A stretch of 58,554 nucleotides of DNA from Actinomycetota bacterium (GCA_041192345.1 JBEEND010000005.1:1-58554); one strand, 5' to 3'; numbered from the stretch's first letter, positions 31-44,019 are shown. Program-made: numbers and translations. Notes: a model not told the origin generated them from the letters alone.

Positions 31-1776
31 ATGTCAAAACAAATCACAGGCGCCGAGAGCCTAGTTAAATCTCTGGAACACGCAGATGTCGAAGTAGTTT
101 TCGGTATCCCAGGTGGCGCAATCCTTCCGGTCTATGACCCATTAATGGATTCCCCAACCGTTCGTCATATTTTGGTTCGCCATGAACAAGGCGCAGGTCA
201 CGCAGCCGAAGGTTATGCCGCAGCGAGTAATCGTGTTGGCGTTTGCATGGCAACAAGTGGACCGGGCGCAACTAACTTAGTAACGCCGATCGCTGATGCG
301 CACATGGACTCAGTTCCCATGGTTGCAATTACAGGTCAAGTGCCAAGCCAGTTCATTGGCTCCGATGCATTTCAAGAAGCCGACATTCGTGGAATCACGA
401 TGCCTATTACCAAGCACAATTATTTAATTACCCGCGCTGAAGATATTCCACGCGCGATCAAAGAAGCATTTCACTTAGCAAACTCCGGTCGCCCTGGTCC
501 CGTACTTGTTGACATTACAAAAGATGCTTTACAAGCCAGAGCCGAATTTGTTTGGCCGACATCAATTGATCTGCCGGGTTACAAGCCAACAACTAAGCCA
601 CACGCCCGCCAGATAAAAGATGCGGCGCGCATGATTGTGGAATCACACCGTCCAGTTTTTTATGTCGGTGGTGGCGTAATTCGATCTAAGGCCGATAAAG
701 AACTTCGACAGCTTGCTGAATTAACGGGAATCCCAGTTGTCACAACCTTGATGGCTCGCGGCGCATTCCCAGATTCGCATGTTCAGCATATGGGTATGCC
801 AGGTATGCATGGAACTGTTGGCGCAGTTGGCGCATTGCAAAAAGCCGATCTCTTGATCGTTCTTGGAGCTCGTTTTGATGATCGAGTAACAGGCAAACTT
901 GAATCATTTTCGCCAAAATCTAAAGTTATCCACATTGATATTGATCCTGCAGAAATTGGTAAGAATCGCCATGCCGACATTCCTATCGTTGCGGATGTGC
1001 GCGAGGCCATCGCACAATTGATTCCGGCGGTAACAAGTGAGTTTGATGCGGGAAATCGCGCTGATTTAACGGCTTGGTGGATTACTTTGAATCATTGGCG
1101 CGAAACTTACCCGCTTGGGTATGACTCACCTACTGATGGCACTTTGTCACCACAATACGTAATCGAGCGTCTTGGCAAGATTTCTGGTCCAGAAACTATT
1201 TACACTGCCGGAGTTGGACAGCACCAAATGTGGGCTGCGCAATTTATCGGCTATGAATATCCAAACACTTGGCTTAACAGTGGTGGCTTAGGAACTATGG
1301 GTTATTCCATTCCAGCAGCCATGGGCGCGAAAGTTGGTTGTCCCGATAAAACTGTTTGGGCAATCGATGGTGATGGTTGTTTCCAGATGACAAATCAGGA
1401 ACTTGCAACTTGCACTATTAATGACATTCAAATCAAAGTTGCGCTGATTAATAACGCATCTCTTGGCATGGTGCGTCAGTGGCAGAACTTGTTTTACAAC
1501 GAGCGCTATAGCAATACCGATTTAAATTCCCATTCAGTTCCCGACTTCGTAAAACTTGCGGATGCGTATGGCTGCCACGGAATTCGGGTTACTAAAGCCG
1601 AAGAAGTTGATAAAGCGATCGAAAAGTCAATGGAGCTAAACGATGCTCCCGTGGTTATTGATTTCCAAGTTCATCGTGATGCCATGGTTTGGCCTATGGT
1701 CGCAGCTGGTACCGGAAATGATGAAATTCAATTTGCCCGAGACATAGCTCCAACCTGGGAACGGGGAGATGACTAG
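31..1776 (+). CDS. ilvB: Acetolactate synthase large subunit
   Basis: [28 protein letters not shown] and ThDP motif GDGCFQM; SD AAGGAG upstream; followed by ilvN and ilvC. Confidence 0.97.
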
Positions 1777-1778
1777 TC

Positions 1779-2300
1779 ATGGCCCGTCATACTTTATCTA
1801 TTTTGGTTCAGGATCAACCTGGCGTTTTGGCTCGGATCTCGGCGTTATTTTCGCGTCGCGGTTACAACATTGAATCTTTAGCAGTAGGCACAACCGAAAC
1901 TGAAGGTGTATCACGCATGACTGTCGTGGTAAATGTGGACGACCATGCTTTGGAGCAGGTTACTAAGCAACTTAACAAACTTATAAACGTGTTAAAAATT
2001 GTCGAGCTAGATGACACCACCGCGATCTCTCGGGAATTGATGCTAATCAAAGTCAAAGCTGACGATGCATCCCGGAGCAAGGTTTTGGAATTCGTGGAGT
2101 TATTTCGGGCCAAAGTTGTTGATGTCAGCGGCGACGCTGTCACAATCGAGGCAACTGGTTCACGCGACAAGCTTGAGGCATTCCTTGATGTCCTAGCGCC
2201 TCATGGAATAAAGGAAATTGTGCAGTCAGGTGTTGTCGCATTAGCCCGCGGCAGCCGTTCAATTGCAGATCGATCCAACAAGAATCCGGACCGCACCTAG
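1779..2300 (+). CDS. ilvN: Acetolactate synthase small (regulatory ACT) subunit
   Basis: QDQPGVLARISALFSRRGYNIESLAV; 2 nt after ilvB. Confidence 0.97.
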   Translation: MARHTLSILVQDQPGVLARISALFSRRGYNIESLAVGTTETEGVSRMTVVVNVDDHALEQVTKQLNKLINVLKIVELDDTTAISRELMLIKVKADDASRSKVLEFVELFRAKVVDVSGDAVTIEATGSRDKLEAFLDVLAPHGIKEIVQSGVVALARGSRSIADRSNKNPDRT

Positions 2301-2354
2301 CCCAAATTCACACCAAGTCAAGAATCTGACAGACTAACCGAACGAGCGAAATAG

Positions 2355-3392
<1,038 letters not shown>

Positions 3393-3402
3393 TTCGTTAA
3401 AA

Positions 3403-4371
3403 ATGCGTGCGATACAGGTAGCCAGCCCGGGTGGACCAGAAGTCCTATCGGTAGCTGAGCTACCTGTTCCCGTTTGCGGACCCGACCAACTGCTAGTTGA
3501 TCTTGCCTTCAGTGGCGTGAACTTCATCGACATTTATCAACGGCAAGGTATTTACCCAATGCCAAGTCCGTATGTGCCAGGACTTGAAGGCTCTGGAATT
3601 GTCATCGAAGTTGGTAGCGCAGTCTCTGGATTCTCAGTCGGGGACCAAATTGCATGGCCATCAGTTCTAGGTAGCTACTGCGAAATTCATGCTGTTAATG
3701 CAGGCTCTGTCGTGAAAGTTCCAAAAGATGTAGCACTTGACGCCGCTTGTGCTGCGATGTTGCAAGGCATGACCGCGCATTATTTGGTCGCTTCACTTTA
3801 TGAAATCAAACCTGGCGATTTTGCGCTTGTGCACGCTGGCGCTGGCGGAGTTGGGCAGCTACTTTGCCAAATGATCTCAGCTCGTGGCGCGACTGCAATC
3901 GCAACCGTTTCAACGGATGCTAAGGCAGCTATTGCCACCAAAGCAGGCGCTCAGCACGTTATTAGATATGACAAAGACGATGTGGCCGTAGAAGTTAAGA
4001 AACTAACTGGGGGAATTGGTGTTGATGTTGTTTATGACGGTGTTGGCGCGTCAACTTTCCAAGCCAGTCTTGCCTCACTAAAGCGCCGCGGCATGATGGC
4101 ACTTTTTGGTGGCGCCAGCGGAATGGTGCCAGCTTTCGACCTGCAATCTCTAAGTCGAATGGGTTCACTATTTGTAACTCGTCCAACTTTGGCGGACTAC
4201 ATTGTCGCGCCTGGGGAAATGCAATGGCGCGCTGACGAGATTTTTTCTGCTCATAGCGCTGGCAAATTAGATTTCGCAATTGGAAAAACATATGACTTAG
4301 CGGATGCAACTTTGGCCCACAGCGACTTGGCTGCGCGCAAAACGACTGGAAAACTTCTCTTAGTTCCCTAG
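3403..4371 (+). CDS. qor: NADPH:quinone oxidoreductase (zeta-crystallin/MDR family)
   Basis: GVNFIDIYQRQG, PGLEGSG, HAGAGGVG, RKTTGKLLL; start moved to ATG 3403 to remove the overlap with ilvC. Confidence 0.88.
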   Translation: MRAIQVASPGGPEVLSVAELPVPVCGPDQLLVDLAFSGVNFIDIYQRQGIYPMPSPYVPGLEGSGIVIEVGSAVSGFSVGDQIAWPSVLGSYCEIHAVNAGSVVKVPKDVALDAACAAMLQGMTAHYLVASLYEIKPGDFALVHAGAGGVGQLLCQMISARGATAIATVSTDAKAAIATKAGAQHVIRYDKDDVAVEVKKLTGGIGVDVVYDGVGASTFQASLASLKRRGMMALFGGASGMVPAFDLQSLSRMGSLFVTRPTLADYIVAPGEMQWRADEIFSAHSAGKLDFAIGKTYDLADATLAHSDLAARKTTGKLLLVP

Positions 4372-4430
4372 TCCATGAACCGTGACTTCTTGGCTTTTTT
4401 CGGTCTTAAATTTCAAGATAGGCTTGCGAT

Positions 4431-5501
4431 ATGCCAGCAGCATTAGTCACCGGGACTTTCAATCCGCCGCATATGGGTCACGTAAAACTCATCAAAGCAG
4501 CGATTGAAAAGCGTGACCATGTCGTTGTTGTTGTACTGGCTCAGCCGCATGATCGCTTAGCCGCCCACGATAGAGCTCGAGCGTTATTGCAAGACTGCGT
4601 CGCTGAAGGCGTTGTCGAATCTGCTATGACGATTGTTCATGGCTATGAATCCACTCCTTATAAACCAGATAATCCTGATGTTGCTAAGTCAAATGCTCGA
4701 GTCATCGAAGCACATTTACGCCATACCCCGCCCGTTGACCTGCTGGTAACTTCAGAAATTAACGGTGAGCAATTTGCTCAACTATTGGGACTGCATAGTT
4801 TTAGCTTTGATCCAGAGCGCACCCAAGTGCCAGTTTCATCAACTCAGATTCGTGATGGTCTTGCGAAAAACTGGCACTTACTTGGTCCGGGATCACGCGA
4901 ACTGCTCGCGATACGAGCAGTGTTTATTGGCGCAGAATCAACTGGTACGACAACAACTACTTTGGCGGTGAAGGCCGAGTTAATAAAGCGCGGCGGAAAC
5001 TTCACCAGCACGAATTGGATTCGAGAGTATGGTCGCGACTTGACTATGCGAAAAGCCGAACAAGCTGAGGCCATGGGACTACCAGAATATGAAGTCCCTT
5101 GGACAACAAATGACTTTGTAGAAATTGCAATCGTGCAACAGCAACTTGAAGACGTCGCAGCTCGAACTGGTGGACCAGTAGTTTGTTGCGATACCGATGT
5201 GTTTGCAACAATCATTTGGGAACGGCGTTATCTTGGCGGAAAAGCTTCACTTCCAATGCCGGCAGACTCGCAGAATCGCATCTATTTTGTAACGCAACCT
5301 GATGGTGTGCCTTTCGTTCAGGACAAGATTCGAAATTCGGAAGGGCTGAGAGAAACTATGACCCGGGAATTTGAAGATGATTTGATCAGCACTGGCCGTT
5401 CGTGGATGGCGCTCGATGGCAGTGTTGAAACAAGAGTGGCAATTGCGCTAGATGCAATTGATGCTGCCATGGCACAAGCTTTTGATTTTCATACACACTA
5501 A
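4431..5501 (+). CDS. NadR-like two-domain protein (HxGH nucleotidyltransferase plus P-loop ribosylnicotinamide-kinase-like domain), no HTH
   Basis: GTFNPPHMGH, PVSSTQIR, GAESTGTTT, EYGR, CDTD, VPFVQDKIR; TAGGCT 6 nt before ATG. Confidence 0.8.
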   Translation: MPAALVTGTFNPPHMGHVKLIKAAIEKRDHVVVVVLAQPHDRLAAHDRARALLQDCVAEGVVESAMTIVHGYESTPYKPDNPDVAKSNARVIEAHLRHTPPVDLLVTSEINGEQFAQLLGLHSFSFDPERTQVPVSSTQIRDGLAKNWHLLGPGSRELLAIRAVFIGAESTGTTTTTLAVKAELIKRGGNFTSTNWIREYGRDLTMRKAEQAEAMGLPEYEVPWTTNDFVEIAIVQQQLEDVAARTGGPVVCCDTDVFATIIWERRYLGGKASLPMPADSQNRIYFVTQPDGVPFVQDKIRNSEGLRETMTREFEDDLISTGRSWMALDGSVETRVAIALDAIDAAMAQAFDFHTH

Positions 5502-5551
5502 ATCCAAGATTCATTACTTTTTCGTAAGCCCCACGCTCTAAACTCGTAGAC

Positions 5552-6589
5552 ATGCGTTCTGTAAAAACTATTCATGTTGTCAGTTGTCATGCCGAAGGTG
5601 AAGTCGGCGATGTAATCGTTGGTGGAGTAAATCCACCGCCAGGGGAAACGCTTTATGAGCAATCTAGATTTATTGCCTCTGACAATGAACTTAGACAGTT
5701 CGTTTTAAACGAACCACGGGGTGGCGTATTTCGCCATGTAAACATGTTGGTTCCGCCAAAAGATCCAAGAGCTGCGGTTGGATTCATAATTATGGAGCCA
5801 GAAGACACTCCCTTGATGTCGGGTTCAAACTCAATGTGTGTTGCCACGGTTGTTTTGGAAACAGGTATTGTTCCAATGATTGAGCCAGAAACTCATTTCT
5901 TTATGGAGGCGCCCGCTGGTCTAGTTGAAGTTTTTGCAACTTGTAAAGATGGCAAGGCTCTGCAAATTAAAGTTCACAATGTCCCATCATTTGCAGCCAC
6001 CCTTGATACCAAACTAGAAGTTGCAGGTTTAGGAACTTTAACCGTGGACACTGCCTGGGGCGGCGATTCTTTTGTAATTGTGAATGCAAAAGAACTTGGA
6101 TTTAGCTTAGATCCCAGTGAAGCCCGCGACCTGGCTGTTATGGGTATTGGAATTACTAAAGCAGCAAATGAACAACTCACTTTTAAGCATCCAATCATCG
6201 ATGGCTGGTCCCACTTTTCATTTTGCCAACTTGCTATGCCAGTTTTTGAAGAAAATGGCATGCTCATCAGCCATAATGCCGTTGCAGTGCAACCGGGCAA
6301 GATCGATCGCTCACCGACTGGAACTGGGGTTTCTGCACGGATGGCAGTTTTGCACGCCCGAGGTGTAATGAAACTTGGCGATAGGTTGCGGGGCCGTTCC
6401 ATAATTGGCTCTCACTTCGAAGGACGCATTGAACAGGAAGTAATGATTGGGGATAAGCCGGGAATTATCCCCTCGATTGCTGGCCAAGCTTGGCTAACTG
6501 GAACTCATCAACACATGCTTGATCCAACTGACCCTTATCCGCTTGGTTACATTGTTAGCGATACTTGGCCGCGTATTGGAAAAGATTAA
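5552..6589 (+). CDS. Proline racemase-family protein with Ser/Thr active site, probable trans-3-hydroxy-L-proline dehydratase
   Basis: HAEGE, MSGSN (replacing MCGH), [13 protein letters not shown] (replacing DRSPCGTG). Confidence 0.85.
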
Positions 6590-6597
6590 TTCCAAAA

Positions 6598-7803
6598 ATG
6601 CAAGAAACCCCAAATGTTGCCCACTTAGATTTTTCGGAGACTGGATTTTCAATCCGCTCTGATCAAGTTATGCAGGCCCGAGAGCAGCATTGGTATGCAA
6701 CCACGAATTTCGGAATTGCAATTTTGCGATACGAAGATTCCAACGCATTACTAAAGGACAAACGGCTTTATCAAGGAACTCGCAGGTGGCCCTCACACTT
6801 TGGCATCAAAGAAGGCTTGCTTGCTAAGTGGTGGCCCGACATTATGCTCAGCATCGAAGGCGAAGATCACCTTCGGCTTCGTAAACTTTCTGGACCAGCA
6901 TTTTCACCAAAAGTTCTTGAACCACTGATCCCCACTTTTTCAGAACTTGCTCATGAATTGATAGATGGATTTTGTGAGCGTGGCACCGCAGAGTTTATGA
7001 GCGAGTTTGCCGAAGCATATTCAGCTCGAGTAATAACGGGCCTTCTCGGTATTGATAAATCCAGGTGGCGAGATGTTGCAGATCTTGCAACTGAACTTGG
7101 GTATGTCTTTAGCGTCACGATCAAAGATGACCTAGACGTTATCGAGCATGGCTTGTCTGGACTTTTAGAAATCTCTAAGACTCTAATAGAAAGCCGGCTA
7201 GGCACTGACGGCGAGGATTTTGTCGGGGCGCTAATCAGGGCAAATTCAGATGGCCAGAAGATAACCGATCATGAGTTATTGATGTTGGTGAGCTTCATTA
7301 TTTTTGCTGGCTTTGATACCACGCGAAATCAACTCGGACTCGGTTTGCAAACTTTTGCTAGCCACATGGATCAGTGGCAAAGCTTGGGTAATAATCCAGA
7401 CTTAGCTCGAAGCGCAGTTGAAGAAGTCATGCGCGTTAACCCAACAATTACTTGGGTTAGTCGAGAGGCCTGCGTTGATGTTGAATACAAAGACCTGTTA
7501 ATACCGCAAGGTAAGACCATCCACTTGCTAACAATTCCTTCTGGCAGCGATCCGCGTCGTTTTGAAAAAATAGAATTCGATATCACCGCCCAGAGACCAC
7601 CTCACTTTGGGTTCGGTGGCGGCATGCATCACTGCTTAGGGCACTATGTGGCTCGCCTTGATATGGCTGAAGCTTATAAAGCACTTGCCAAACGAATCCC
7701 AGACTTTGAGATCCTGACGGGCGCCTCTTATCTTCCAGATAGCGGAAACACTGGTCCCATTGAACTGCCAATAAAGTTCACACCTTCACTGCGCAGGTCA
7801 TAA
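6598..7803 (+). CDS. Cytochrome P450
   Basis: I-helix AGFDTT, EEVMR (ExxR), haem motif FGGGMHHCLG; ATG 6598 lies 8 nt after the upstream stop. Confidence 0.95.
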   Translation: MQETPNVAHLDFSETGFSIRSDQVMQAREQHWYATTNFGIAILRYEDSNALLKDKRLYQGTRRWPSHFGIKEGLLAKWWPDIMLSIEGEDHLRLRKLSGPAFSPKVLEPLIPTFSELAHELIDGFCERGTAEFMSEFAEAYSARVITGLLGIDKSRWRDVADLATELGYVFSVTIKDDLDVIEHGLSGLLEISKTLIESRLGTDGEDFVGALIRANSDGQKITDHELLMLVSFIIFAGFDTTRNQLGLGLQTFASHMDQWQSLGNNPDLARSAVEEVMRVNPTITWVSREACVDVEYKDLLIPQGKTIHLLTIPSGSDPRRFEKIEFDITAQRPPHFGFGGGMHHCLGHYVARLDMAEAYKALAKRIPDFEILTGASYLPDSGNTGPIELPIKFTPSLRRS

Positions 7804-8453
7804 TGCCCGAGAAACCTAAATCTCCACCAAAATTGAAATCCATAAAGTCCATTCAGGCTTATCTTGCAACGCAGGATAAGCGACTAGGAAGATTCTTGGA
7901 GAACGCTCCGCTTTATCCAGTTGCAAAAGAACCAGCACATAACTCTCACTTCGAGACGATAATTTTTGCAGTTATTGGCCAACAAGTTTCTGGCAAAGCA
8001 GCGGATACCATAACCCATCGGTTAATAGCTAAAAGTGGTTCTCCAGTAAAGCCAGCAAAACTTCTAAAACTTGGTCACTTGCAACTGCGCGAAGCCGGAT
8101 TAAGCAATGCAAAAGCGCGAACTATTCTCGAGTTGAGTCAGGCAGTTGTTGAGGGCTTTGATTTAGAGTCAGTAGGCGAATTGCCAGACGATGAAGTGGT
8201 CAAGGCACTTACGCAATTCTGGGGCATAGGTCGTTGGACCGTAGAAATGTTCATGATGTTTCGCCTAGGGCGTATGGATGTTTGGCCCATTGGGGATTTA
8301 GGTGTCAGGCGTGGTTGGGGAATTATTCAGGGGCTTGGCTACACCCCAACTGAAAAAGAAGTAATCGGTGTTACTGATCACTTATCGCCATATAGAAGTG
8401 TGGTGGCTTGGCATTGTTGGCGAGCCACCGATGAAGAACCAGACTTCTGGTAG
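7803..8453 (+). CDS. DNA-3-methyladenine glycosylase II-like (HhH-GPD family)
   Basis: IGQQVS, HhH LTQFWGIGRWTVEMF, GDLGVRRG, SPYRS; TAATG coupling to P450. Confidence 0.88.
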   Translation: MPEKPKSPPKLKSIKSIQAYLATQDKRLGRFLENAPLYPVAKEPAHNSHFETIIFAVIGQQVSGKAADTITHRLIAKSGSPVKPAKLLKLGHLQLREAGLSNAKARTILELSQAVVEGFDLESVGELPDDEVVKALTQFWGIGRWTVEMFMMFRLGRMDVWPIGDLGVRRGWGIIQGLGYTPTEKEVIGVTDHLSPYRSVVAWHCWRATDEEPDFW

Positions 8454-8509
8454 TTGTGGCTGCGAAATCTTTGCAGATCAATTTCTTTGGAGTCACTTAG
8501 AATCAAGTT

Positions 8510-9472
8510 ATGTCAAAACCAATTGTTCTTATTGCTGAAGAGTTATCCCCTGCAACAATCGCAGTTCTTGGTGACGGTTTTGAAATTCGCTATTGTGATG
8601 GCGCGAATCAGGATGAATTACTTCCGGCCCTTGCCCAAGCGAATGCTGTTCTGATTCGCTCTGCAACGAAGTTAGACGCGCAAGCAATCGCCGCTGCGCC
8701 AAATCTCAAGATCATCGCTCGCGCGGGAGTTGGACTGGACAATGTTGATATTCCAGCTGCCACCAGCGCTGGCGTACTGGTTGTTAATGCACCAACGAGC
8801 AATATTGTTTCTGCAGCAGAGTTAGCAGTTGCATTGCTTTTGGCAGTTGCCCGAAACGTTGTGCCAGCAAATCTGGCATTGCGCGAGGGTAAGTGGAAAC
8901 GTTCCCAATTTGGGGGAGTAGAACTACAGGGTAAAACTGTTGGCATCATCGGGATGGGCAAAATTGGCTTACTTGTTGCCCAACGACTAGCTGGCTTTGA
9001 CATGAAGTTTGTTGCTTACGATCCTTATGTGAAAGTTGCTCCAAGCGGTGGACCCTCGATCACGATGGTTCCCTTGGATGAACTATTAGGTCAATCTGAC
9101 TTTGTAACCATTCACATCCCAAAGACTCCAGAGACTTCGGGCCTGATTAACGCAGCCGCACTTTCAAAAATGAAGCCATCGGCGTTTTTAATTAATGCTG
9201 CCCGCGGCGGCGTGCTTGATGAAGCAGATTTATTTCAGGCATTGCAGGCAGGAAAGATTGCTGGCGCGGGTCTGGATGTTTATGCAACGGAGCCATGCAC
9301 CGTTTCACCGTTATTTGCACTGGACAACGTAGTTGCAACTCCGCATCTTGGGGCCTCCACAGAAGAAGCCCAAGAAAAAGCTGGAATTGCTGTTGCCGAA
9401 TCAGTAGTCGAAGCGTTTGCTGGCCGAGAAGTTCCGGGCGCAGTAAACGCTAGTGAAGTTTCAACTAACTAG
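8510..9472 (+). CDS. serA: D-3-phosphoglycerate dehydrogenase, short form without ASB/ACT domains
   Basis: RAGVGLDNVD, NAPTSN, GMGKIG, NAARGG, DVYATEP, TPHLGAST; ilvC-serA-leuB synteny; only 320 aa. Confidence 0.85.
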   Translation: MSKPIVLIAEELSPATIAVLGDGFEIRYCDGANQDELLPALAQANAVLIRSATKLDAQAIAAAPNLKIIARAGVGLDNVDIPAATSAGVLVVNAPTSNIVSAAELAVALLLAVARNVVPANLALREGKWKRSQFGGVELQGKTVGIIGMGKIGLLVAQRLAGFDMKFVAYDPYVKVAPSGGPSITMVPLDELLGQSDFVTIHIPKTPETSGLINAAALSKMKPSAFLINAARGGVLDEADLFQALQAGKIAGAGLDVYATEPCTVSPLFALDNVVATPHLGASTEEAQEKAGIAVAESVVEAFAGREVPGAVNASEVSTN

Positions 9473-10694
9473 TTAAACCCTCACGAAATAGCGCAACCAT
9501 CTGATCAATTTCATCTGCGCTCGTGGTTAGCGGCGGCGCTACTTGCATTGCGCCACCCCAGATAGCGCGGGAAATTACTCCCACATCGCGACACTTGGCA
9601 TACATTGCTGGCGCCATGGCTGGATCTGCCATTTGGATACCGCCGAGGAAGCCAACGCCAGTTCGAACTTCGCTTACAACATCTATGTCTTCCAAAGTGC
9701 GAAGCGCAGTGGCGAACTTGTCTTCAAGTTTGGCCACATGTGATGGAAGTTGCTCGCGCATCATGATGTTGATGTTTGCAATGCCAGCAGCAGCTGCGGT
9801 GGCATGACCACCATATGTGTATCCATGACGAAATACGCCAGCTGTTTCTGAGTAAAACGCTTCCCAAACCGATGGCGCTGCAATAACTGCGCCCATTGGT
9901 GCATATCCCGAAGTTAATCCTTTTGCGACGGCGATTAGATCAGGCTGTAAGCCATAACGCGTTGAGGCAAACCAGTCGCCACAGCGACCAAAGCCATTTA
10001 TGACTTCATCAGCCACAAACAAAATGTTTCGTTCCGCACACGCCTTGCGAACAGTTTGAAGATAAAGATCAGGTGGGATCCGAACGCCACCAGCGCCTTG
10101 AATTGGCTCGCAGAAAAAAGCTGCAATGTTATCTTCGCCAATGCGATCGATTGTTGCGATCATTTCTTCGGCATCATCCCAGGGAACTTGAACTACATCT
10201 TCAACTAATTCTGAGTAACCGTCATTGTTTGGTCCGATGCCGGCAATTGATGTGCCACCTGCGTGCATACCGTGGTAACCGTTTTCGCGGAAAACGATCA
10301 CTTTCTTACTTGGCTTACCTTGCAGTGTCCAATAGCGACGTGACATCTTGAGCGCAGTATCAATACTGTCACTACCACCTGATGTGAAAAATATTTTAGA
10401 GTCTGGAACTGGAGAAATTGAAGCTACTAAATCTGCTAACTCAATGGTGGGAGCAGTAGTGCACTCGCCAAATGAGGAGTATGAGGCAATGTTGCTTGCC
10501 TGCGCCGCCATTGCTTCGCCGATTTCTTTTCGGCCATGGCCAACGTTCATGTACCAAAGTGCGCCGGCAGCATCGAAATACTTTTTGCCCTTTTCATCCC
10601 AAACCCAAGAGCCTTCACCTTTAGTCATAACAAGTGGACCATTCTTGGAAATTGCATGCATGTCGGCAAAGCCATGCCAGAAAGCGTTAGCCAT
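9465..10694 (-). CDS. Class III PLP aminotransferase (omega-amine/putrescine:pyruvate transaminase-like)
   Basis: FTSGGSDS, YHG, EPIQGAGG, DEVINGFGR, AKGLTSGY, HGYTYGGH; SD AAAGGAG before ATG 10694. Confidence 0.9.
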   Translation of the reverse strand: MANAFWHGFADMHAISKNGPLVMTKGEGSWVWDEKGKKYFDAAGALWYMNVGHGRKEIGEAMAAQASNIASYSSFGECTTAPTIELADLVASISPVPDSKIFFTSGGSDSIDTALKMSRRYWTLQGKPSKKVIVFRENGYHGMHAGGTSIAGIGPNNDGYSELVEDVVQVPWDDAEEMIATIDRIGEDNIAAFFCEPIQGAGGVRIPPDLYLQTVRKACAERNILFVADEVINGFGRCGDWFASTRYGLQPDLIAVAKGLTSGYAPMGAVIAAPSVWEAFYSETAGVFRHGYTYGGHATAAAAGIANINIMMREQLPSHVAKLEDKFATALRTLEDIDVVSEVRTGVGFLGGIQMADPAMAPAMYAKCRDVGVISRAIWGGAMQVAPPLTTSADEIDQMVALFREGLTS

Positions 10695-35962: not shown

Positions 35963-36832
35963 ATGCCGGAATTACCTGAAGTTGAAGTTGTCCGCCGGGG
36001 GATTGATACCTGGGTTAGCGGGCGAACTATTGAAACTACCCAAGTTTTACATTCCCGCGCAGTACGTAATCACACTGGCGGGCCAAAAGATTTTGCGCGT
36101 CGATTAAAAGGCCGAACTGTTGTCTCAGTAAATCGTCGTGGGAAATTTATGTGGCTCAGTCTTGATGATGATCAAGCCCTGGTAACTCATCTGGGAATGA
36201 GTGGACAAGTTTTAGTGCAGCCACTTGACGCGGAACCTGAAAAACATATGCGAGTACGTTGTACTTTTACTGACGGTGGACGCGCTATGCATTTTGTTGA
36301 TCAACGCACATTTGGCGGTATGGCTATCCATGAATTAGTGGAAGTTGATCATGGCCAATGGGTTCCGCAGCCGGTAGTTCACATTGCGCGCGACCCACTT
36401 GATCCATTTTTCGATCCCGATTCATTCATCACGGGGATTCGAAAGAAGAATACTCAAGTCAAGCGGGCAATCTTGGACCAAACTTTAATTAGTGGAATAG
36501 GAAATATCTATGCCGATGAATCGCTCTGGCGCGCAAAGATTCACTGGGCAACTCCCACGAATCGTTTAACTAAAATCCAAGCGACGACATTGCTCACTCA
36601 TGCAACGCAAGTGATGAGCGAAGCGCTTGACCAAGGTGGAACGTCATTTGATTCGTTATACGTAAATGTGAATGGGGAAAGTGGGTATTTCTCGCATGAA
36701 CTAAATGCTTATGGCCGCGAAGGTGAACCCTGTGATCGCTGTGGCAGCATCATGTTGCGGGAGGCATTTGCAAATCGCTCATCATTTCGGTGCCCACGGT
36801 GCCAACGCAAGCCAAAAGCCGTAAAAACCTGA
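35963..36832 (+). CDS. mutM: Formamidopyrimidine-DNA glycosylase
   Basis: [36 protein letters not shown] zinc finger. Confidence 0.97.
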
Positions 36833-36864: not shown

Positions 36865-38178
36865 TTAGTAAACGCGAGCGTAACGTTCGCAAAGTTCTTC
36901 GTCGCTCATGTCCTTAGCGAGCGCAATCTCAGTGCGTTTAACAGCGACGTACGAATCATACATAGTTGGTGGCATCCACGCTTTCACTATGGCGTCAGCT
37001 TCCATCAAATCCAAAGCTTCAGCTAAGGAGCTTGGCAGTGGTTCAATTCCTAATTCAGAGCGTTGCTGTTCCGATAAATCATTCGGGTCAACATCAACTG
37101 ATTTTGGAAGCGGAAGCTTTTCCTTGATACCTTGCAGACCAGCAAGTACCAGAGCGCCCAAGACTAAATACGGACTTGCCGTAGCATCCGGAGCTCTAAG
37201 TTCCAGATTGTAGGCTTTTGCTGCCTTAGCTGGATTTTGATCTGGCGAAGGACAGATTCGCAGCGCAGCTTCGCGATTTTGAACTCCAAAACTCGAGTAG
37301 CCGCAAGACCAATGATTAGGGCCAAGACGCAGATAAGAAACTGGACTTGGCGAGGTGATGGCACAGATTGCCCTCATGTGTCTGGTAACACCGGCGATGA
37401 AGTGCTGCGCTACAACGCTGGCATTATTGGGCTGTGTTGCATCGTAAGTTGCGTTGTTGCCCTTGGAATCCAAAAAGCTGAAATGTACATGAGCGCCATT
37501 GCCGATTGCATCTGGCGCGGCTTTTGGTGTGAATGTTGCGCGATACCCAAGTCGACGAGCAGTCTCTCGAATTACTTCGCGAGTAATAATTGCCCGCTCA
37601 GCTGCTGCAAGGCCAACCGCTGGCGCGGAAGTGACTTCGTACTGGTTAACGCCAAATTCTGGTTCAACTGTCTCTAATCCAACGTTTGCTTGAGTTAATG
37701 CTTTAGTTAAATCTTGGGTGTAACGTGCAACATTTCTGATCGCTTCAATTGTGAAGGATGGCCCAGCCGCTATTGGGTCATCTAGCAGCGTGAATTCGTG
37801 TTCGAATGCGGCCAAAAATTCAAGTCCAGTTTCTTGACGGAATAATTCAAGAGCATTTTTGAAGAACCCACGCGTGCAGCACTCCCAGTTTTTCCCATCA
37901 TTAGTTTTGGAGTCACACAAGTAAAAATGAAATGGTGGGGCATCTTCCCAAATATCGATTCGAGTTTTAGTGCTCGCTACGGGAACTTGCCGAACTTCTA
38001 ACATTGGACCCCATGGATTTGGTGCCAATTCTGCAAATGGAGTTTGCGCCTGTCCTGCTACGGCCCAACCCAATCCAAACTCCATTCGAGCTTCGATTTG
38101 GTTTAATGGGACGCCACGGCAACGCATTAATCCGACATAGTCATTCCAGGCAAGAAGTACGATCTCTCCGTCAGTCAC
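36865..38178 (-). CDS. Glutamine synthetase-like gamma-glutamyl-amine ligase (GlnA3/PauA-like)
   Basis: FEHEF, EPEFGVNQYE, GNGAHVHFS, NREAALRI, LELRAPDA; flap reads SYLRLGPNHWSC instead of SYKRLVPGYEAP; SD GGAGG 8 nt before GTG. Confidence 0.85.
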   Translation of the reverse strand: MTDGEIVLLAWNDYVGLMRCRGVPLNQIEARMEFGLGWAVAGQAQTPFAELAPNPWGPMLEVRQVPVASTKTRIDIWEDAPPFHFYLCDSKTNDGKNWECCTRGFFKNALELFRQETGLEFLAAFEHEFTLLDDPIAAGPSFTIEAIRNVARYTQDLTKALTQANVGLETVEPEFGVNQYEVTSAPAVGLAAAERAIITREVIRETARRLGYRATFTPKAAPDAIGNGAHVHFSFLDSKGNNATYDATQPNNASVVAQHFIAGVTRHMRAICAITSPSPVSYLRLGPNHWSCGYSSFGVQNREAALRICPSPDQNPAKAAKAYNLELRAPDATASPYLVLGALVLAGLQGIKEKLPLPKSVDVDPNDLSEQQRSELGIEPLPSSLAEALDLMEADAIVKAWMPPTMYDSYVAVKRTEIALAKDMSDEELCERYARVY

Positions 38179-38250
38179 CGGTCATGCCTCCATACAAAAA
38201 TATTGAGAATACGCAACACAATGCTTAAAATTTTATCTAACATAGAAGGC

Positions 38251-39447
38251 ATGAATCCACCGATTTCAATAATTGACCTTGCCAATTCAATCGAGTTAAC
38301 AGACCATCATTGCCATGGAGTCGAAAAGACTAATTTAGAACGCGCTGATTTTGAAATTATCGCTACCGAATCTGATTGGCCCGAACCAAATGGGATGACA
38401 ATTTTTGACTCCCCAGTTGGAATCATGATGCGTGCGGAGTGCTCTGGCTTCCTTGGGTTACCAAAGCACTGCTCGCCAGATGACTATTTCGAAAGGCGCT
38501 ATGAACTTGGTCAAAATAAGGTAACTCAGTTGCTACTACCTGCAACGGGAATTAAAACCTTTTTAATCGACTCAGGTGCTCCACCCGTTAATACTGGCGC
38601 TGAAGTTAGACAAGATAGCAATGCATTTTCACATAATTCGATTACCACCTTTAAAGAAATGGCTGAAATAACGCCAGGAACTTCTGCATATGAGATTGTC
38701 CGCCTTGAATCAGTCGCAGAATCTATTGCCCACAAAACTTCAGCAGCAACATTTGCCGATGATTTTGCGAAGGCTTTATCGATCGCAGCCGTTCACGCAT
38801 TAGGTTTTAAATCCATAATTGCGTATCGATACGGACTTGACTTCAATCCTGCCCGACCAAGTGAGCGTGAAGTTGTTGTGGCTGCAGGAGAGTGGCTCGA
38901 AGCTACAGCGAATCAGCCTCGCCCAAGAATGAATCATCCGGTCTTGCTTCGCCACATTCTCTGGGAAGCAGTCGACTATGGAACGGCAATTCAGTTTCAT
39001 GTTGGTTATGGTGATTCGGATATCGTCATGCACAGATGCGACCCAACGCAAATGACTGAGTTTCTAAAAATGACTGTTGACAGTGGAACTTCAATTACGC
39101 TTCTGCATTGCTATCCATTTATTCGAGAAGCTGGATATTTAGCACAGGTTTATCCGCACGTTTATTTGGATACTGGCGCTGCTGCGCACTGGACGGGATT
39201 GTCGAGTGCAACAATTGTGGCCCAATCTGTTGAGATGGCCCCAATGAGTAAAGTTTTGTTTTCCTCCGATGCGTTTGGTTTACCAGAGCTTTATTACATT
39301 GGAACTCTGGTCTGGCGTCGCGCTATCGGTTCGATTCTTGATAAATGGGTTCAGTCAGATGGCCTTGGATACCAGGACGCAGTTAAATACTTAAATTGGA
39401 TGGCCAACGATAACGCTCGTCGGGCATACCGATTGCTTCCTGAGTAG
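38251..39447 (+). CDS. Amidohydrolase-2 family protein resembling the FluG/NodGS N-terminal domain
   Basis: DHHCH, FKSIIAYR, QFHVGYGD, LLHCYP, YPHVYLD, FSSDAFGLPE; TAACAT 7 nt before ATG 38251. Confidence 0.85.
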   Translation: MNPPISIIDLANSIELTDHHCHGVEKTNLERADFEIIATESDWPEPNGMTIFDSPVGIMMRAECSGFLGLPKHCSPDDYFERRYELGQNKVTQLLLPATGIKTFLIDSGAPPVNTGAEVRQDSNAFSHNSITTFKEMAEITPGTSAYEIVRLESVAESIAHKTSAATFADDFAKALSIAAVHALGFKSIIAYRYGLDFNPARPSEREVVVAAGEWLEATANQPRPRMNHPVLLRHILWEAVDYGTAIQFHVGYGDSDIVMHRCDPTQMTEFLKMTVDSGTSITLLHCYPFIREAGYLAQVYPHVYLDTGAAAHWTGLSSATIVAQSVEMAPMSKVLFSSDAFGLPELYYIGTLVWRRAIGSILDKWVQSDGLGYQDAVKYLNWMANDNARRAYRLLPE

Positions 39448-39463
39448 GCAGCATCACTTTCTC

Positions 39464-40297
39464 ATGACATACATGCCAGTAGATGGAAAACCCGATCGTG
39501 TTCATGTTGGTGCCCGTGCGCTTAACCTCGATGATTGGATTGAAATCAATCAAGATTATGAAGCTTATGTCGCTTACAAACTTGAATTATTAAGTACCAA
39601 ACATGATGAAGTTTTCGTTTCACTGCCGATGGGAGATCACGGCTCCCGTGAAGTACTTGCGCTTATTAGCGAACACTTGCCCCGAATTTTTCCGCAGCGT
39701 TGGCCAACTGGTGTGCCTGTCGATGAATCCAGGCATCCGTTGGAAGCTGCTTCACTTTTAGTGCAAGAAGATCTTTCGCTAATGACACAAGTTGGCACTG
39801 ATTGGATTCTTTCGGCGGCAAGTTTGTGTTTTCCAAGTCGCTGGGACGTTCGTGACAAGATTGGCAAAAACTTGCTGGGTATCCATGCCCCCGTGCCGCA
39901 TTACGAAGAAAAAATTGGCACAGCTACCCAAAACCTTTTCGACAAACTAACGGTTGAGCGCCCGATTTGGCGGGTGAACTGGACCGTTATGGATAGCGGC
40001 GAGCTTCATCAACCAACTGCCCCGCGAGGCCCCGACGCTCTGCAAATATCCTCGGAAAACATTGAGCAGTCCCTGCATTTTCGCCGGGAACGTCAAACCC
40101 TGCGAAAACTGCCTGAATCAGGCGACATTTTGTTCACAATTCGCACATATACTGACCCGTTTGCCACAGTAGTCGAGCAATTTCCGGAATTTCGCAGGAA
40201 CATCGGAACCACGATTGCAGGTGCCTCCCCGCAAACTGGGGAATACAAGGGCTGGGTCAAAATTCTTAATGACTTGCAGGCCTGGTCGAACGCCTAA
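39464..40297 (+). CDS. DUF3445 / haem-dependent oxidative N-demethylase alpha-subunit-like protein
   Basis: LLVQEDL, LCFPSRW, KIGK, IHAPVP, WRVNW, RRERQTLRKLPESGDILFTIRTY. Confidence 0.82.
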   Translation: MTYMPVDGKPDRVHVGARALNLDDWIEINQDYEAYVAYKLELLSTKHDEVFVSLPMGDHGSREVLALISEHLPRIFPQRWPTGVPVDESRHPLEAASLLVQEDLSLMTQVGTDWILSAASLCFPSRWDVRDKIGKNLLGIHAPVPHYEEKIGTATQNLFDKLTVERPIWRVNWTVMDSGELHQPTAPRGPDALQISSENIEQSLHFRRERQTLRKLPESGDILFTIRTYTDPFATVVEQFPEFRRNIGTTIAGASPQTGEYKGWVKILNDLQAWSNA

Positions 40298-40404: not shown

Positions 40405-43400
40405 GTGTACCTCAAGAGTCTGACGATCCGCGGCTTCAAGTCGTTTGCATCTTCAACGACTCTGCATTTCGAGCGAGGTATCACCGCAGTGGTTGGGCCA
40501 AACGGCTCCGGTAAATCCAATGTCGTAGATGCCATTGCGTGGGTTCTAGGTGAACAAGGCGCGAAAAGTCTTCGTGGCGGCAAAATGGAAGATGTTATTT
40601 TTGCTGGCTCATCTGGGCGAGCACCCCTTGGTCGCGCTGAAGTGTTGTTAACTATTGACAACACCGACGGCGCACTACCGATTGATTATTCCGAAGTAAC
40701 AATTTCGCGAACTATGTTTCGTAACGGCGGATCTGAATATGCGATCAATGGAACTACAACGCGCTTACTAGATGTTCAAGAATTATTAAGTGACTCTGGC
40801 ATTGGTCGAGAGATGCACGTCATAGTTGGCCAAGGTCAGCTCCGAGATATTTTGTTAGCAACACCTGAGCAACGACGCGGCTACATCGAAGAAGCTGCAG
40901 GTGTTCTAAAGCATCGCAAGCGAAAAGAAAAAGCTCTGCGCAAGCTTGATGCGATGGAAGTCAACCTCACTCGAGTTGAAGATTTAACAAACGAACTTCG
41001 CAGGCAGCTAAAACCACTTGGCCGCCAAGCAGAAGTAGCTCGTCGGGCAAATGTTATTCAATCCGATGTTCGCGATTCTCGCTTGCGCCTGCTGGCTGAT
41101 GATCTAACGCAAATGAAATTGGCACTAGCTGCTGAGATTGCTGATGAAACTGCTTTGCGGGAACGACGTAGTGAAGTGGAAAGTGAATTAACGGCAGCAA
41201 AAGCTCGGGAAGCAATTCTCGATGCTGCAATTACTGAATCTGCACCAACAGTTGATCGCTCGCAAAATACTTTTTATGGTCTGGGCGCTCAGCAAGAACG
41301 AATTCGTTCGACCATGGCACTTGCAAAAGAGCGAGTGCGGTTGGGCGAAAGTGAAGATGAAGAAGTCCAGCGCGGTCGGGATCCAGAAGAGATTGATCGG
41401 GAAGCTCATGCGCTGCGAGTGCAAGAATCGGAACTTGCGAGTCAAGTTGATTCAGATCGGTTAGCTCTTGCTGGCGCAATCAGTGAACGTACCGCTGCAG
41501 AGGCCGCGTTAGCTGCTGAAGATGCCAGATTGCAAGCCGCAACCAGAGCCGTGGCTGATCGCCGTGAAGGTCTAGCTCGCATTGCCGGACAAGTAGCCGC
41601 AGCGCAATCAAGATTAGAAGCACGCAGCGCAGAAATTTCCCGCTTAGATGAACGCTTAAGTGAAGCGCGAGATCGCGCCGATCAAGCAACTCAAGAATTT
41701 ACCGCCTTGGAAACCCAAGTGGCCGGTATGGACGCGGGCGAACTTGGCCTTGACAGTGAACACGATGAGGCAGCAAGGGCGCTTGCAAGTGCCGAGAAAG
41801 AATTGCAAGCCACCAAACATGAGGAACAGGAAGCCGAGCGCGAACGTGCCGGCGCTATTGCTCGACTGGAAGCACTCGAACAAGGTATGGCCCGCCGCGA
41901 TGGTGGCGCTGCAGTATTGGCCGCAACAGGCACTGTCTCTGGAATACTTGGTTCAGTTGCTGCCTTAATGCAGATTGAATCCGGTTGGGAAACAGCAATT
42001 GCTGCAGCCCTTGGATCAGCTGCTGATGCAATTGCAGTGGCGTCCACTGACGCAGCCGAAAACGCGGTACGGATGCTACGTCGCGATGACGCTGGCCGAG
42101 CTGCATTAGTTGTAGTTGGACAAAACTCAAGTGATCAAAGCAGCTGGCCTGCGCTAGCAAGTGGCCAACGTTATGCCATTGATTTGATAACTTGCGATAT
42201 AGATCTTCGTAATTCACTCTCGGGAATTTTGCAACGAGTTGTCATGACAAATTCCTTGGAAGAAGCTCGCCAAGTAGTTTCAAGTAATCGCGAATTGCGC
42301 GCAGTCACTCGTGACGGTGATGTTCTGGGCCACGGCTTTGTCCAAGGTGGATCAAAAGGCACACAAAGTTTGGTCGAAATTCAAGCAGCAGTAGATGAAG
42401 CGCGACTAAAACTTGAAGCTTCCGCCCATCGCGTTGATCGCGCAAAATTTGCAGTTGTTGGCGCAGTTCAAGAGCAAGAAGCAGCATTAGTTTTAGTAAG
42501 TAACTCACTTGAGCGGCTTCATGAGTCGGATGCCAGCATGGCTGCAATTGCCGTACAACTTGGAAGCTTGCAGTCATTAGTGCGCAGTGCAACGGGCGAG
42601 GCTGATCGTGTTGCAGCTGCAATTTCCTCGGCCAATAAAGCTCGCGAAGATGATTTGCGGAGTGTGCAAGAACTTGAAACCAGATTCTCAGCGGCCGAGA
42701 ATGATAAAATTTCAGAATCTGAACTCAGCGAAGAGGGTAGAGAAAACTTAGTTAAATCCCTTGAAGGAATTCGGCAAGCCGAACTTAACGGGCGACTCAC
42801 TGTGCGCACGGGCGAAGAAAGAGTTCGCGCACTTGGCACGCAGGCCGAACAGCTTGAGCATTCCGCAAATCTTGAACGGACATCTCGGGCTCGTGCGATC
42901 GAGTTACGTGATCGCCGCCGCCGCGAAGCCCAGATTGCCAGAGCAGTAGTTGTTGCAGCCGAGTCGGCGCTTGAGTTGCTGCGGCAATCGGTCGCACTTG
43001 CGCAATTCGAACGTGAACAAGCTGTGGCCACTCGCCAAACCCAAGAAGTGGAAGTGCGTAAAGTCCGCGAGCGAATCCGCGAGTTAACTGCTGACCTTGA
43101 TATCTTGACTGACTCGGTTCACCGCGATGAAGTTGCCCGCGCAGAACAACGGCTTCGCATTGAGGCTATGGAAAACAAGTCAATTGAAGATTTCGGTGTT
43201 GGACCAGATGAACTTCTTGCTGAGTACGGCCCAGAAGTATTAGTTCCACCGTCCCCGCCGGCACCTGGCGATGATGTAAATCCAAATGATCCTGAGCCAG
43301 TTGCTTACCCTTATGTTCGAACGCAACAAGAATCCCGACTAGCCGCAGCCGAGCGATCCCTTGCTTTACTTGGGCGAGTAAACCCACTTGCGCTCGAGGA

Positions 43401-44019
43401 ATTCTCGGCTCTTGAAGAACGTCACAAATTCTTGGGTGAGCAATTAGAGGATCTTCGCAAATCGCGTAATGATTTAATGAGTGTTATTCGCGACGTTGAT
43501 GCTCGTGTGCAAGAAGTGTTTGCAGAAGCATACGAGGACACTTCTCGAGAGTTCACCGAAGTCTTTGCGCGCTTATTCCCTGGCGGTGAGGCTCGCATGA
43601 TCCTTACTGAGCCAAATGATTTACTCAATTCAGGTGTTGAAATCGAAGCTCGTCCGCCCGGCAAAACTTACAAAAGACTTTCGCTGCTTTCAGGTGGCGA
43701 ACAAGCCCTCACTGCTGTCGCATTTTTGATTGCGTTATTCAAGTCCAGGCCAAGTCCGTTCTACATTCTCGATGAAGTTGAAGCCGCACTTGATGATGTG
43801 AACTTGGGTCGGTTACTTGAAATCTTGGCTGAACTTCGGGCAAACTCTCAACTATTGATTATCACGCACCAAAAGCGCACCATGGAAATTGCAGATGCAC
43901 TTTATGGTGTTTCGATGCGTGGCGATGGTGTCACTCAAGTAATTAGTCAGCGAATAACCCATGATGACCATGACAACCCCGAGCAAGTTGCCGACGCGCA
44001 AATGGCCACTAATTCCTAG
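40405..44019 (+). CDS. smc: Chromosome segregation protein SMC
   Basis: GFKSF, GPNGSGKSN, coiled coils and hinge, LSGGEQ, ILDEVEAALD, ITH. Confidence 0.97.
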   Translation: MYLKSLTIRGFKSFASSTTLHFERGITAVVGPNGSGKSNVVDAIAWVLGEQGAKSLRGGKMEDVIFAGSSGRAPLGRAEVLLTIDNTDGALPIDYSEVTISRTMFRNGGSEYAINGTTTRLLDVQELLSDSGIGREMHVIVGQGQLRDILLATPEQRRGYIEEAAGVLKHRKRKEKALRKLDAMEVNLTRVEDLTNELRRQLKPLGRQAEVARRANVIQSDVRDSRLRLLADDLTQMKLALAAEIADETALRERRSEVESELTAAKAREAILDAAITESAPTVDRSQNTFYGLGAQQERIRSTMALAKERVRLGESEDEEVQRGRDPEEIDREAHALRVQESELASQVDSDRLALAGAISERTAAEAALAAEDARLQAATRAVADRREGLARIAGQVAAAQSRLEARSAEISRLDERLSEARDRADQATQEFTALETQVAGMDAGELGLDSEHDEAARALASAEKELQATKHEEQEAERERAGAIARLEALEQGMARRDGGAAVLAATGTVSGILGSVAALMQIESGWETAIAAALGSAADAIAVASTDAAENAVRMLRRDDAGRAALVVVGQNSSDQSSWPALASGQRYAIDLITCDIDLRNSLSGILQRVVMTNSLEEARQVVSSNRELRAVTRDGDVLGHGFVQGGSKGTQSLVEIQAAVDEARLKLEASAHRVDRAKFAVVGAVQEQEAALVLVSNSLERLHESDASMAAIAVQLGSLQSLVRSATGEADRVAAAISSANKAREDDLRSVQELETRFSAAENDKISESELSEEGRENLVKSLEGIRQAELNGRLTVRTGEERVRALGTQAEQLEHSANLERTSRARAIELRDRRRREAQIARAVVVAAESALELLRQSVALAQFEREQAVATRQTQEVEVRKVRERIRELTADLDILTDSVHRDEVARAEQRLRIEAMENKSIEDFGVGPDELLAEYGPEVLVPPSPPAPGDDVNPNDPEPVAYPYVRTQQESRLAAAERSLALLGRVNPLALEEFSALEERHKFLGEQLEDLRKSRNDLMSVIRDVDARVQEVFAEAYEDTSREFTEVFARLFPGGEARMILTEPNDLLNSGVEIEARPPGKTYKRLSLLSGGEQALTAVAFLIALFKSRPSPFYILDEVEAALDDVNLGRLLEILAELRANSQLLIITHQKRTMEIADALYGVSMRGDGVTQVISQRITHDDHDNPEQVADAQMATNS

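Follow-up and report, generated by a model that had tools for sequence, protein, structure and literature searches.

Why do three genes, encoding a glutamine synthetase (GS)-like ligase, a metal-dependent hydrolase and a DUF3445 protein, lie together between mutM and smc, and do their products act together? This question is raised by positions 36,865 to 40,297 of a 58,554-nucleotide stretch of DNA from an Actinomycetota bacterium (GCA_041192345.1, JBEEND010000005.1:1-58554), the whole of which is termed here the window. An earlier note on this DNA had proposed that the three genes form an undescribed module for amines. That proposal is partly supported: the locus represents, in one lineage, a variant of a ligase/hydrolase module of known type, and the DUF3445 protein is plausibly, though not demonstrably, its oxidative partner. 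What is new is (i) the divergently arranged, PA5508-like form of the ligase/hydrolase pair, (ii) its lineage-specific coupling to a stand-alone DUF3445 protein, and (iii) a cassette that decays from seven genes to three and then to one. The locus merits attention because it brings together members of two large families that have no assigned reaction: stand-alone DUF3445 proteins and amidohydrolases of the FluG-N, or 2QPX, type. Its components are:

36865..38178, minus strand: GS-like gamma-glutamyl-amine ligase of the PA5508/GlnA3 branch, 437 residues (PF00120, 1.3e-77)
38179..38250, no strand assigned: divergent spacer between ligase and hydrolase, 72 nucleotides, 65% A+T, with a TTGAGA-17-TAAAAT site and GAAGG before the ATG
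38251..39447, plus strand: Amidohydro_2 metal-dependent hydrolase of the FluG-N/2QPX type, 398 residues (PF04909, 7.1e-12)
39464..40297, plus strand: stand-alone DUF3445 protein, resembling the HODM alpha subunit and of haem-PAS type, 277 residues (PF11927, 1.4e-58)

This layout of three genes between mutM and smc, with spacers of 72 and 16 nucleotides, had been described from the sequence and is confirmed by open reading frame calls and by direct measurement of the spacers; the three domain assignments were likewise correct, as judged both by matches to the Pfam hidden Markov models and by solved relatives. The hydrolase reading frame is open from position 38203 on the plus strand, and it is the ATG at 38251, preceded by GAAGG, that yields a 398-residue protein and a 72-nucleotide spacer. 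The stop codon of the ligase lies 32 nucleotides from mutM, that of the hydrolase 16 nucleotides from the DUF3445 start codon, and the DUF3445 gene ends 107 nucleotides before smc. The divergent spacer (65% A+T) compares with a window G+C content of 48.4%.

What kind of ligase is this? Its best solved relative is PA5508 of Pseudomonas aeruginosa (4HPP), which it matches over its full length (E = 1e-103), with the glutamate-methylamine ligase 9QUR (4e-35) and true GS far behind. The nearest NCBIfam model is the gamma-glutamylputrescine synthetase equivalog NF045547, for which the ligase scores 276.4 bits against a cut-off of 650; the same scan returned no named model for the hydrolase or the DUF3445 protein. 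In an alignment of seven GS-family proteins--the window ligase, the products of the five other GS-family genes of its own genome, and one relative--residues E126, E128, E174, E181, H230, H232, R284, R302, R307 and E326 are invariant, and the window ligase retains the ligands for metal, ATP and glutamate. It departs from true GS at two positions. At the flap, it reads RLGPNHW where the two true GS of the same genome read RLVPGYE and RLSGGGE, so that Trp replaces Glu, as had been noticed earlier; and at a second ammonium-site position it reads VAGQA instead of FDGSS or FDGSA, so that Ala replaces Asp. We equate this Glu and Asp with Glu327 and Asp50 of enteric GS, and presume that they have the corresponding roles at the ammonium site. 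PA5508 itself is described as a GS homologue that glutamylates bulky or aromatic organic amines, with no glutamine made, and that stands beside GlnA3 in phylogeny (PMC6478659, PMC11335346). Judged by these likenesses, the window ligase would use ATP to glutamylate an organic amine, not ammonium.

The ligase is one of six GS-family genes in the window's own genome (G000, 1.69 Mb), which lie on contigs C17, C21, C4 and C5 (loci L002-L007). Two have the flap-Glu motif of true GS (one of these two was checked against NCBIfam); the remaining four lack this Glu and resemble amine ligases. Two of these four are found 3 kb apart on C4, each with a class-I GATase gene as its neighbour, divergent in one pair and tandem in the other; one of the two GATases matches Peptidase_C26 as well. 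Given these GS-like/GATase pairs, the combination of a ligase with a hydrolase is a recurrent design in this genome.

The hydrolase matches PF04909 with 46.1 bits against a cut-off of 26.4. By sequence, 2QPX is its sole significant solved relative (E = 1.3e-34), and its AlphaFold2 model (mean predicted local distance difference test score, pLDDT, of 86) superimposes on 2QPX with a template modelling (TM) score of 0.81, followed by uronate isomerases and uncharacterised amidohydrolase-2 proteins. Residues D18, H20, H22, H250, H286 and D340 are invariant among ten hydrolase sequences; from their counterparts in the amidohydrolase superfamily, we take these to be the metal ligands. Since 2QPX is the protein that replaced the N-terminal half of FluG in vivo (PMC6478659), the classification of the hydrolase as FluG-N-like is borne out. 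The reaction of hydrolases of this type is stated to be unknown in the same report, which also describes GS-like and amidohydrolase genes as frequent neighbours in bacteria. Two peculiarities of the family are as follows. A 16-residue insert (about residues 112-127; 38584-38631) is present only in the window protein and in that of G083 among ten homologues, and it is the only part of the model to be of low confidence (pLDDT below 50). In one homologue, P0270 (858 residues; 42% identity over 96% coverage), the hydrolase is joined to an amino-acid permease domain (PF13520/PF00324), a fusion that may point to an imported substrate.

Ligase and hydrolase genes travel together widely. Among 93 genomes of the window's GTDB family--most of them metagenome-assembled genomes (MAGs), so that absences depend on completeness--the hydrolase occurs in 20, all of the window's genus, at 21 loci. 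A GS-like gene adjoins it at 19 of these (nine divergent, ten tandem upstream); of the other two, one runs off its contig and one holds a partial gene. In a GTDB-wide scan, a GS-like open reading frame lies within 8 kb of the hydrolase at 55 of the 80 loci representing the best 80 of 572 confirmed relatives, whose hosts include freshwater actinobacterial MAGs, Chloroflexota, Kribbella, Pseudonocardiaceae and Streptomyces. Liv-type ABC importers and varied oxidoreductases (DAO at L093; GMC at L138 and L151) lie near such loci; that oxidoreductases of other kinds accompany the pair elsewhere speaks for the link with DUF3445. Some genomes appear to be losing the pair: at L065 (G079:C86) and L076 (G061:C3), one hydrolase gene has an in-frame TGA and another retains about 231 aligned residues and has no GS-like neighbour.

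The pair is very probably a gamma-glutamylation module of a known kind. It belongs with the glnA3-SCO6961 operon (PMC5403932) and with split FluG, and the proximity of GS-like and amidohydrolase genes was already reported (PMC6478659); to the pair, therefore, the word 'undescribed' does not apply. Within such a module, the hydrolase, which is transcribed divergently from the ligase and would share with it the 72-nucleotide spacer as a control region, most likely cleaves an amide in the same route, thereby freeing either glutamate from a modified gamma-glutamyl intermediate or an amine from a precursor.

The third protein raises a different question, namely whether a DUF3445 domain standing alone is likely to be an enzyme. 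The family is large: 3029 DUF3445 cluster representatives match at E ≤ 1e-3. The AlphaFold2 model of the window protein (pLDDT 95.3, predicted TM score 0.92) superimposes on the HODM alpha subunit (5LTH/5LTE) with a TM score of 0.88 at 21% identity, and the window sequence matches 5LTE with an E-value of 8e-16; the next structural matches are LOV/PAS domains. (The PAS range of 5LTE is given in PMC8694187.) Nine residues--W25, D103, P124, W127, H141, R170, R207, E209 and F224--are invariant in 78 diverse DUF3445 homologues, and all nine have counterparts in 5LTE by pairwise alignment. H141, the one His among them, aligns with a His of 5LTE. By these likenesses the protein may be a haem-binding enzyme. 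Dimethylamine monooxygenase activity in Escherichia coli is reported to need DmmA, DmmB and DmmC jointly (PMC5520151). The earlier remark that reductase partners are lacking holds: the neighbours of the window DUF3445 gene, which is single-copy in its genome, are the hydrolase gene and smc, with no DmmB-, DmmC- or DmmD-like gene beside it, and PF22290 (the domain present in the DmmB-like reductase beside DUF3445 at locus L170, in a genome of mycobacterial size) is not hit anywhere in the window's genome, which is 95% complete. That no Dmm-type reductase was found there counts against an oxidative role.

One argument for such a role is the history of the linkage. The trio occurs in nine species-level genomes (the window's own, G083, G053, G056, G064, G086, G393, G394 and G395) and in three genomic contexts, and in all nine the hydrolase and DUF3445 genes lie on the same strand with a gap of about 14-29 nucleotides. 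Away from mutM-smc, the trio is flanked in G064 and G086 by SDR genes and an MDMPI-like gene, and in G393, G394 and G395 by a TM2 protein, an AMP-binding enzyme and a glutamate dehydrogenase. Moreover, some genomes hold the trio as part of a seven-gene block, which consists of a second GS-like gene (GS-like 2), GATase_4, an amino-acid permease, a PF04199 cyclase, the ligase, the hydrolase and DUF3445. In G053 this block occupies the mutM-smc interval, and in G393 and G394 an unrelated site:

L041 (G053), 1315-9117: seven-gene block
L079, 234-8101: seven-gene block
L082, 2117-10000: seven-gene block

The window holds the last three genes of the block, and its genome lacks orthologues of GS-like 2, the permease and the cyclase; the window's three genes are a trimmed copy of the block.

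Phylogenetic trees of the three genes agree with this picture. The trio genomes form one clade in the DUF3445, hydrolase and ligase trees (SH-aLRT support of 99, 99 and 98, respectively); G393-395 form the basal branch of both the DUF3445 tree and the ligase tree, and lone DUF3445 genes are nested inside the clade in the DUF3445 tree. The mutM genes of G393-395 are 47-52% identical to the window's, which is the level seen for other genera of the family (47-56%) as opposed to within the genus (64-100%), yet their DUF3445 proteins are 60-62% identical to the window's, as compared with 46-54% for congeneric copies at a fatty-acid-synthesis locus. This combination implies that the block, DUF3445 included, moved between genera. 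The DUF3445 gene would have become linked to the pair a single time, in an ancestor of this narrow clade, and been kept with it since. Among the titles and abstract openings listed in literature searches, none concerns a coupling of DUF3445 to a GS-like/amidohydrolase pair.

The insertion site itself is bounded by:

35963..36832, plus strand: mutM (Fpg), left edge of the insertion site (PF01149, PF06831, PF06827)
40405..44019, plus strand: smc, right edge of the insertion site (PF02463, PF06470)

By Pfam, further housekeeping genes lie on either side: RecG, Cons_hypoth95, CTP_transf_like, YceD and RNase III on one, and, beyond the trio, SMC and SRP54-type FtsY on the other. That the trio is an insert, as had been suggested, is confirmed by three related genomes (G393, G394 and G086, the last identical with G396) in which rnc, mutM and smc are contiguous, with smc directly after mutM, and in which DUF3445 is single-copy. 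The G+C profile across the region has no sharp break and no island signature. We considered whether DUF3445 might instead be a fixed resident of the mutM-smc site and the pair the variable insert; this was rejected, inasmuch as the trio also occurs away from mutM-smc in genomes in which rnc-mutM-smc is contiguous, and the lone DUF3445 state is nested within trio-bearing branches. The spacers between mutM and lone DUF3445 genes bear no likeness to the window's junctions when judged by eye, without alignment or search.

The promoter-like sequence TTGAGA-17-TAAAAT lies at 38203-38231 (plus strand) within the divergent spacer, but a scan of 3.8 kb found three promoter-like sites where 5.1 were expected by chance, so that it counts as a consensus match only. 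The same scan, with site counts not above chance, found no terminator-like or promoter-like site in the gap between hydrolase and DUF3445. Metatranscriptome contigs from four lake studies cover all three genes, and three contigs span the hydrolase-DUF3445 junction; because further contigs also span the convergent ends of mutM and the ligase and the divergent promoter, such that DNA carry-over is possible, junction-spanning contigs are no proof of co-transcription. In relatives (L060-L066) a motif occurs 5-10 nucleotides ahead of the hydrolase ATG, reading GGTAGCGTAGCA at four loci and TAG(G/A)TAGCCTACG at three; a search of the window's divergent spacer for such an operator found nothing recognisable as this motif.

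We propose, with a probability of about 0.45, that freshwater actinobacteria with small genomes share a portable cassette for scavenging nitrogen, that the locus is a trimmed copy of it, and that DUF3445 is the oxidative partner, probably supplying an N-dealkylating step on the same amine pool. The domains, the conserved catalytic residues and the course of the linkage are observed; the substrates, the binding of haem, the order of the steps and co-transcription are inferred. The broader notion that DUF3445 cooperates with the pair in the trio clade, whatever the order of the steps, is plausible, with odds close to even; it is made so by the long-kept single linkage, by the conserved boundary of the block, by the inter-genus transfer, and by the need for some step between ligase and hydrolase. 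Taken together, the conserved linkage in nine genomes and three contexts, the agreeing trees and the move between genera uphold that part of the earlier proposal which treats the three genes as a unit; but what the earlier note itself named as counting against it, a DUF3445 gene unlinked to the pair in relatives, is also widespread.

This unlinked state is the chief source of evidence weighing against the proposed cassette and in favour of its strongest rival, by which the pair alone is the module and DUF3445, having some unrelated general role, was translocated once beside the hydrolase and rides at the edge of the block--a reading that we consider a serious contender, albeit somewhat less probable. 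Among 22 DUF3445 orthologues with at least 72% identity, six belong to trios, 15 have mutM directly upstream and no pair, and one is cut, so that 15 of the 21 determinable cases are lone; no DUF3445 gene occurs within 8 kb at 75 of the 80 hydrolase loci, the other five being trio genomes already named; and elsewhere in the Actinomycetota none of nine DUF3445 loci has a GS-like or hydrolase gene within about 7 kb. (The last figure derives from a 301-genome phylum sample in which 11 genomes, the window's included, contain PF11927; nine loci had usable flanks, one 2.9-kb contig being left out.) The lone state arose at least three times, corresponding to at least three independent losses of the pair, after which DUF3445 remained under strong purifying selection: dN/dS is 0.036-0.065 for lone DUF3445 and 0.08-0.09 for DUF3445 in trio genomes, with dS near saturation in most comparisons (the best, L017/L020, has a dS of 0.73 and an omega of 0.052). 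In genera g3, g4, g5 and g7, DUF3445 is present in 23 genomes and the hydrolase in none; likewise seven lone-DUF3445 genomes lack a hydrolase homologue, although among these only G062 (93% complete) exceeds 90% completeness. Across the family, DUF3445 is single-copy in 59 of 93 genomes and five of eight genera, and it occurs in unrelated housekeeping contexts, such as PAP2/DUF3145 beside fatty-acid synthesis genes, PFK/rhodanese and GNAT/deacetylase. The slot between PAP2 and DUF3145, in which congeneric genomes hold their single DUF3445 gene, contains no gene in the window's genome but only a 169-nucleotide gap (G000:C9:28853-30400); the cassette copy is thus the sole copy and has replaced the ancestral one. 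DUF3445, moreover, is the outermost, terminal gene of the block, and could for that reason be a passenger, and, inasmuch as the linkage arose only once, the nine trio genomes are not independent observations. Against a mere passenger, however, the block ends exactly after DUF3445 at two unrelated sites and across the transfer between genera; the short gap to the hydrolase persists in all nine genomes despite divergence of DUF3445 to 60% identity; and eight of the 15 lone-DUF3445 genomes retain a hydrolase homologue elsewhere, in seven of them with a GS-like gene adjacent. A DUF3445 protein that cooperates with the pair where both are present would, then, not depend on it, but be the product of a single, family-wide gene that also works from other sites.

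If DUF3445 does cooperate, the order of the steps has still to be considered. In the isopropylamine (Ipu) and putrescine (Puu) pathways, a gamma-glutamyl intermediate is oxidised between glutamylation and hydrolysis. In the cycle put forward in the earlier note, taken strictly, the ligase might glutamylate a methylated amine or polyamine, DUF3445 might N-dealkylate the resulting gamma-glutamyl amide, and the hydrolase might then free glutamate, all three proteins being needed; this cycle fits the operon-like layout and conserved linkage, and it would explain why ligase and hydrolase do not act futilely upon the same compound. We nevertheless regard it as improbable, inasmuch as DUF3445 is found and maintained where the pair is missing, and the pair where DUF3445 is missing; in the known methylated-amine route it is the free amine that the DUF3445 enzyme acts on, ahead of the GS-like ligase (PMC5520151); and PA5508, the nearest relative of the ligase, reportedly favours bulky or aromatic amines over methylamine (PMC6478659). 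Slightly more doubtful still is a biosynthetic or signalling function like that proposed for fungal FluG, in which the hydrolase would act first, the pair would make a gamma-glutamylated metabolite, and DUF3445 would either tailor the product or serve as a haem-PAS sensor. The amidohydrolase product has been proposed to feed the ligase (PMC6478659), the nearest characterised structural neighbours of the hydrolase are uronate isomerases rather than gamma-glutamyl hydrolases, and LOV/PAS sensor domains come next after HODM among the structural matches of DUF3445; but the fuller cassettes, with their amino-acid permease and second ligase plus GATase_4, have the look of uptake and catabolism, as do the Liv-type importers at other hydrolase/ligase loci, the hosts have streamlined genomes of 1-2 Mb, and every residue that is invariant in the DUF3445 family is shared with an enzyme, HODM.

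Three further observations concern DUF3445 alone. The gene is found in the PAP2-DUF3145 slot or in the cassette, but in no case in both; three of the nine phylum-sample loci have an SDR gene near it; and at L170 (G161:C1), positions 8373-9761 encode a DmmA-like_N plus 2Fe-2S ferredoxin-domain protein, which is the only canonical-looking DUF3445 partner in that sample.

What is at stake depends upon which reading holds. It is a long shot that the stand-alone DUF3445 protein is a haem N-dealkylase that works without a dedicated Dmm reductase, acting here on a gamma-glutamyl-N-alkylamide made by the ligase, from which the hydrolase then frees glutamate; were this so, freshwater actinobacteria would have an undescribed route for gaining nitrogen from methylated or alkylated amines, and both stand-alone DUF3445 proteins and bacterial split-FluG hydrolases would acquire their first biochemical role. 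Because the host lineage is common in freshwater plankton, a new amine-scavenging route would bear on the turnover of dissolved organic nitrogen in lakes. If DUF3445 is a passenger, the locus is merely another case of the known GS-like/amidohydrolase pairing. Either way, the same DUF3445 subfamily is found with a seven-gene cassette, with a three-gene core or alone--a natural experiment that provides well-defined candidates for biochemistry.

Each known system resembles the window in part. PuuA/PuuD-type systems follow the same logic of an ATP-dependent glutamylating ligase plus a deglutamylating hydrolase, but the window hydrolase is of an unrelated superfamily (a TIM-barrel metallo-amidohydrolase) and its ligase falls well short of the gamma-glutamylputrescine synthetase model (276 versus 650 bits). 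HODM and DmmABC(D) share PF11927, the fold of the alpha subunit (TM score 0.88) and, in 5LTE, the nine invariant residues, but at 21% identity the window's DUF3445 protein is distant, and it has neither DmmB/C/D-like neighbours nor a PF22290 protein in its genome. PA5508 (PauA7) is the full-length counterpart of the ligase (E = 1e-103), but it has no amidohydrolase partner, no SCO6961 orthologue being reported in P. aeruginosa (PMC5403932).

Closer in gene content is the glnA3-SCO6961-SCO6960 operon of Streptomyces coelicolor, in which a GS-like ligase (glnA3, SCO6962) likewise adjoins an amidohydrolase-2 protein; glnA3-SCO6961 is described as induced by polyamines, with SCO6961 as the predicted hydrolase of the pathway (PMC5403932), and tandem Streptomyces loci were recovered among the relatives of the window's hydrolase. 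The window differs in that its ligase and hydrolase genes are divergent rather than tandem, there is no small SCO6960-like gene, DUF3445 follows the hydrolase, and its ligase resembles PA5508 more closely than it does the ligases of tandem loci (36-39% identical). FluG of Aspergillus nidulans and plant NodGS combine the same two domain types in one polypeptide, where the window has two divergent genes; a word-based, and hence weak, search for FluG-like fusions of the hydrolase yielded only two longer proteins, neither of them with a GS domain. The parallel is nonetheless close at the level of the proteins: the best solved relatives of the window's pair are 2QPX and 4HPP, and it is 2QPX and PA5508 which, alone or fused, replaced the N- and C-terminal halves of A. 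nidulans FluG in vivo (PMC6478659).

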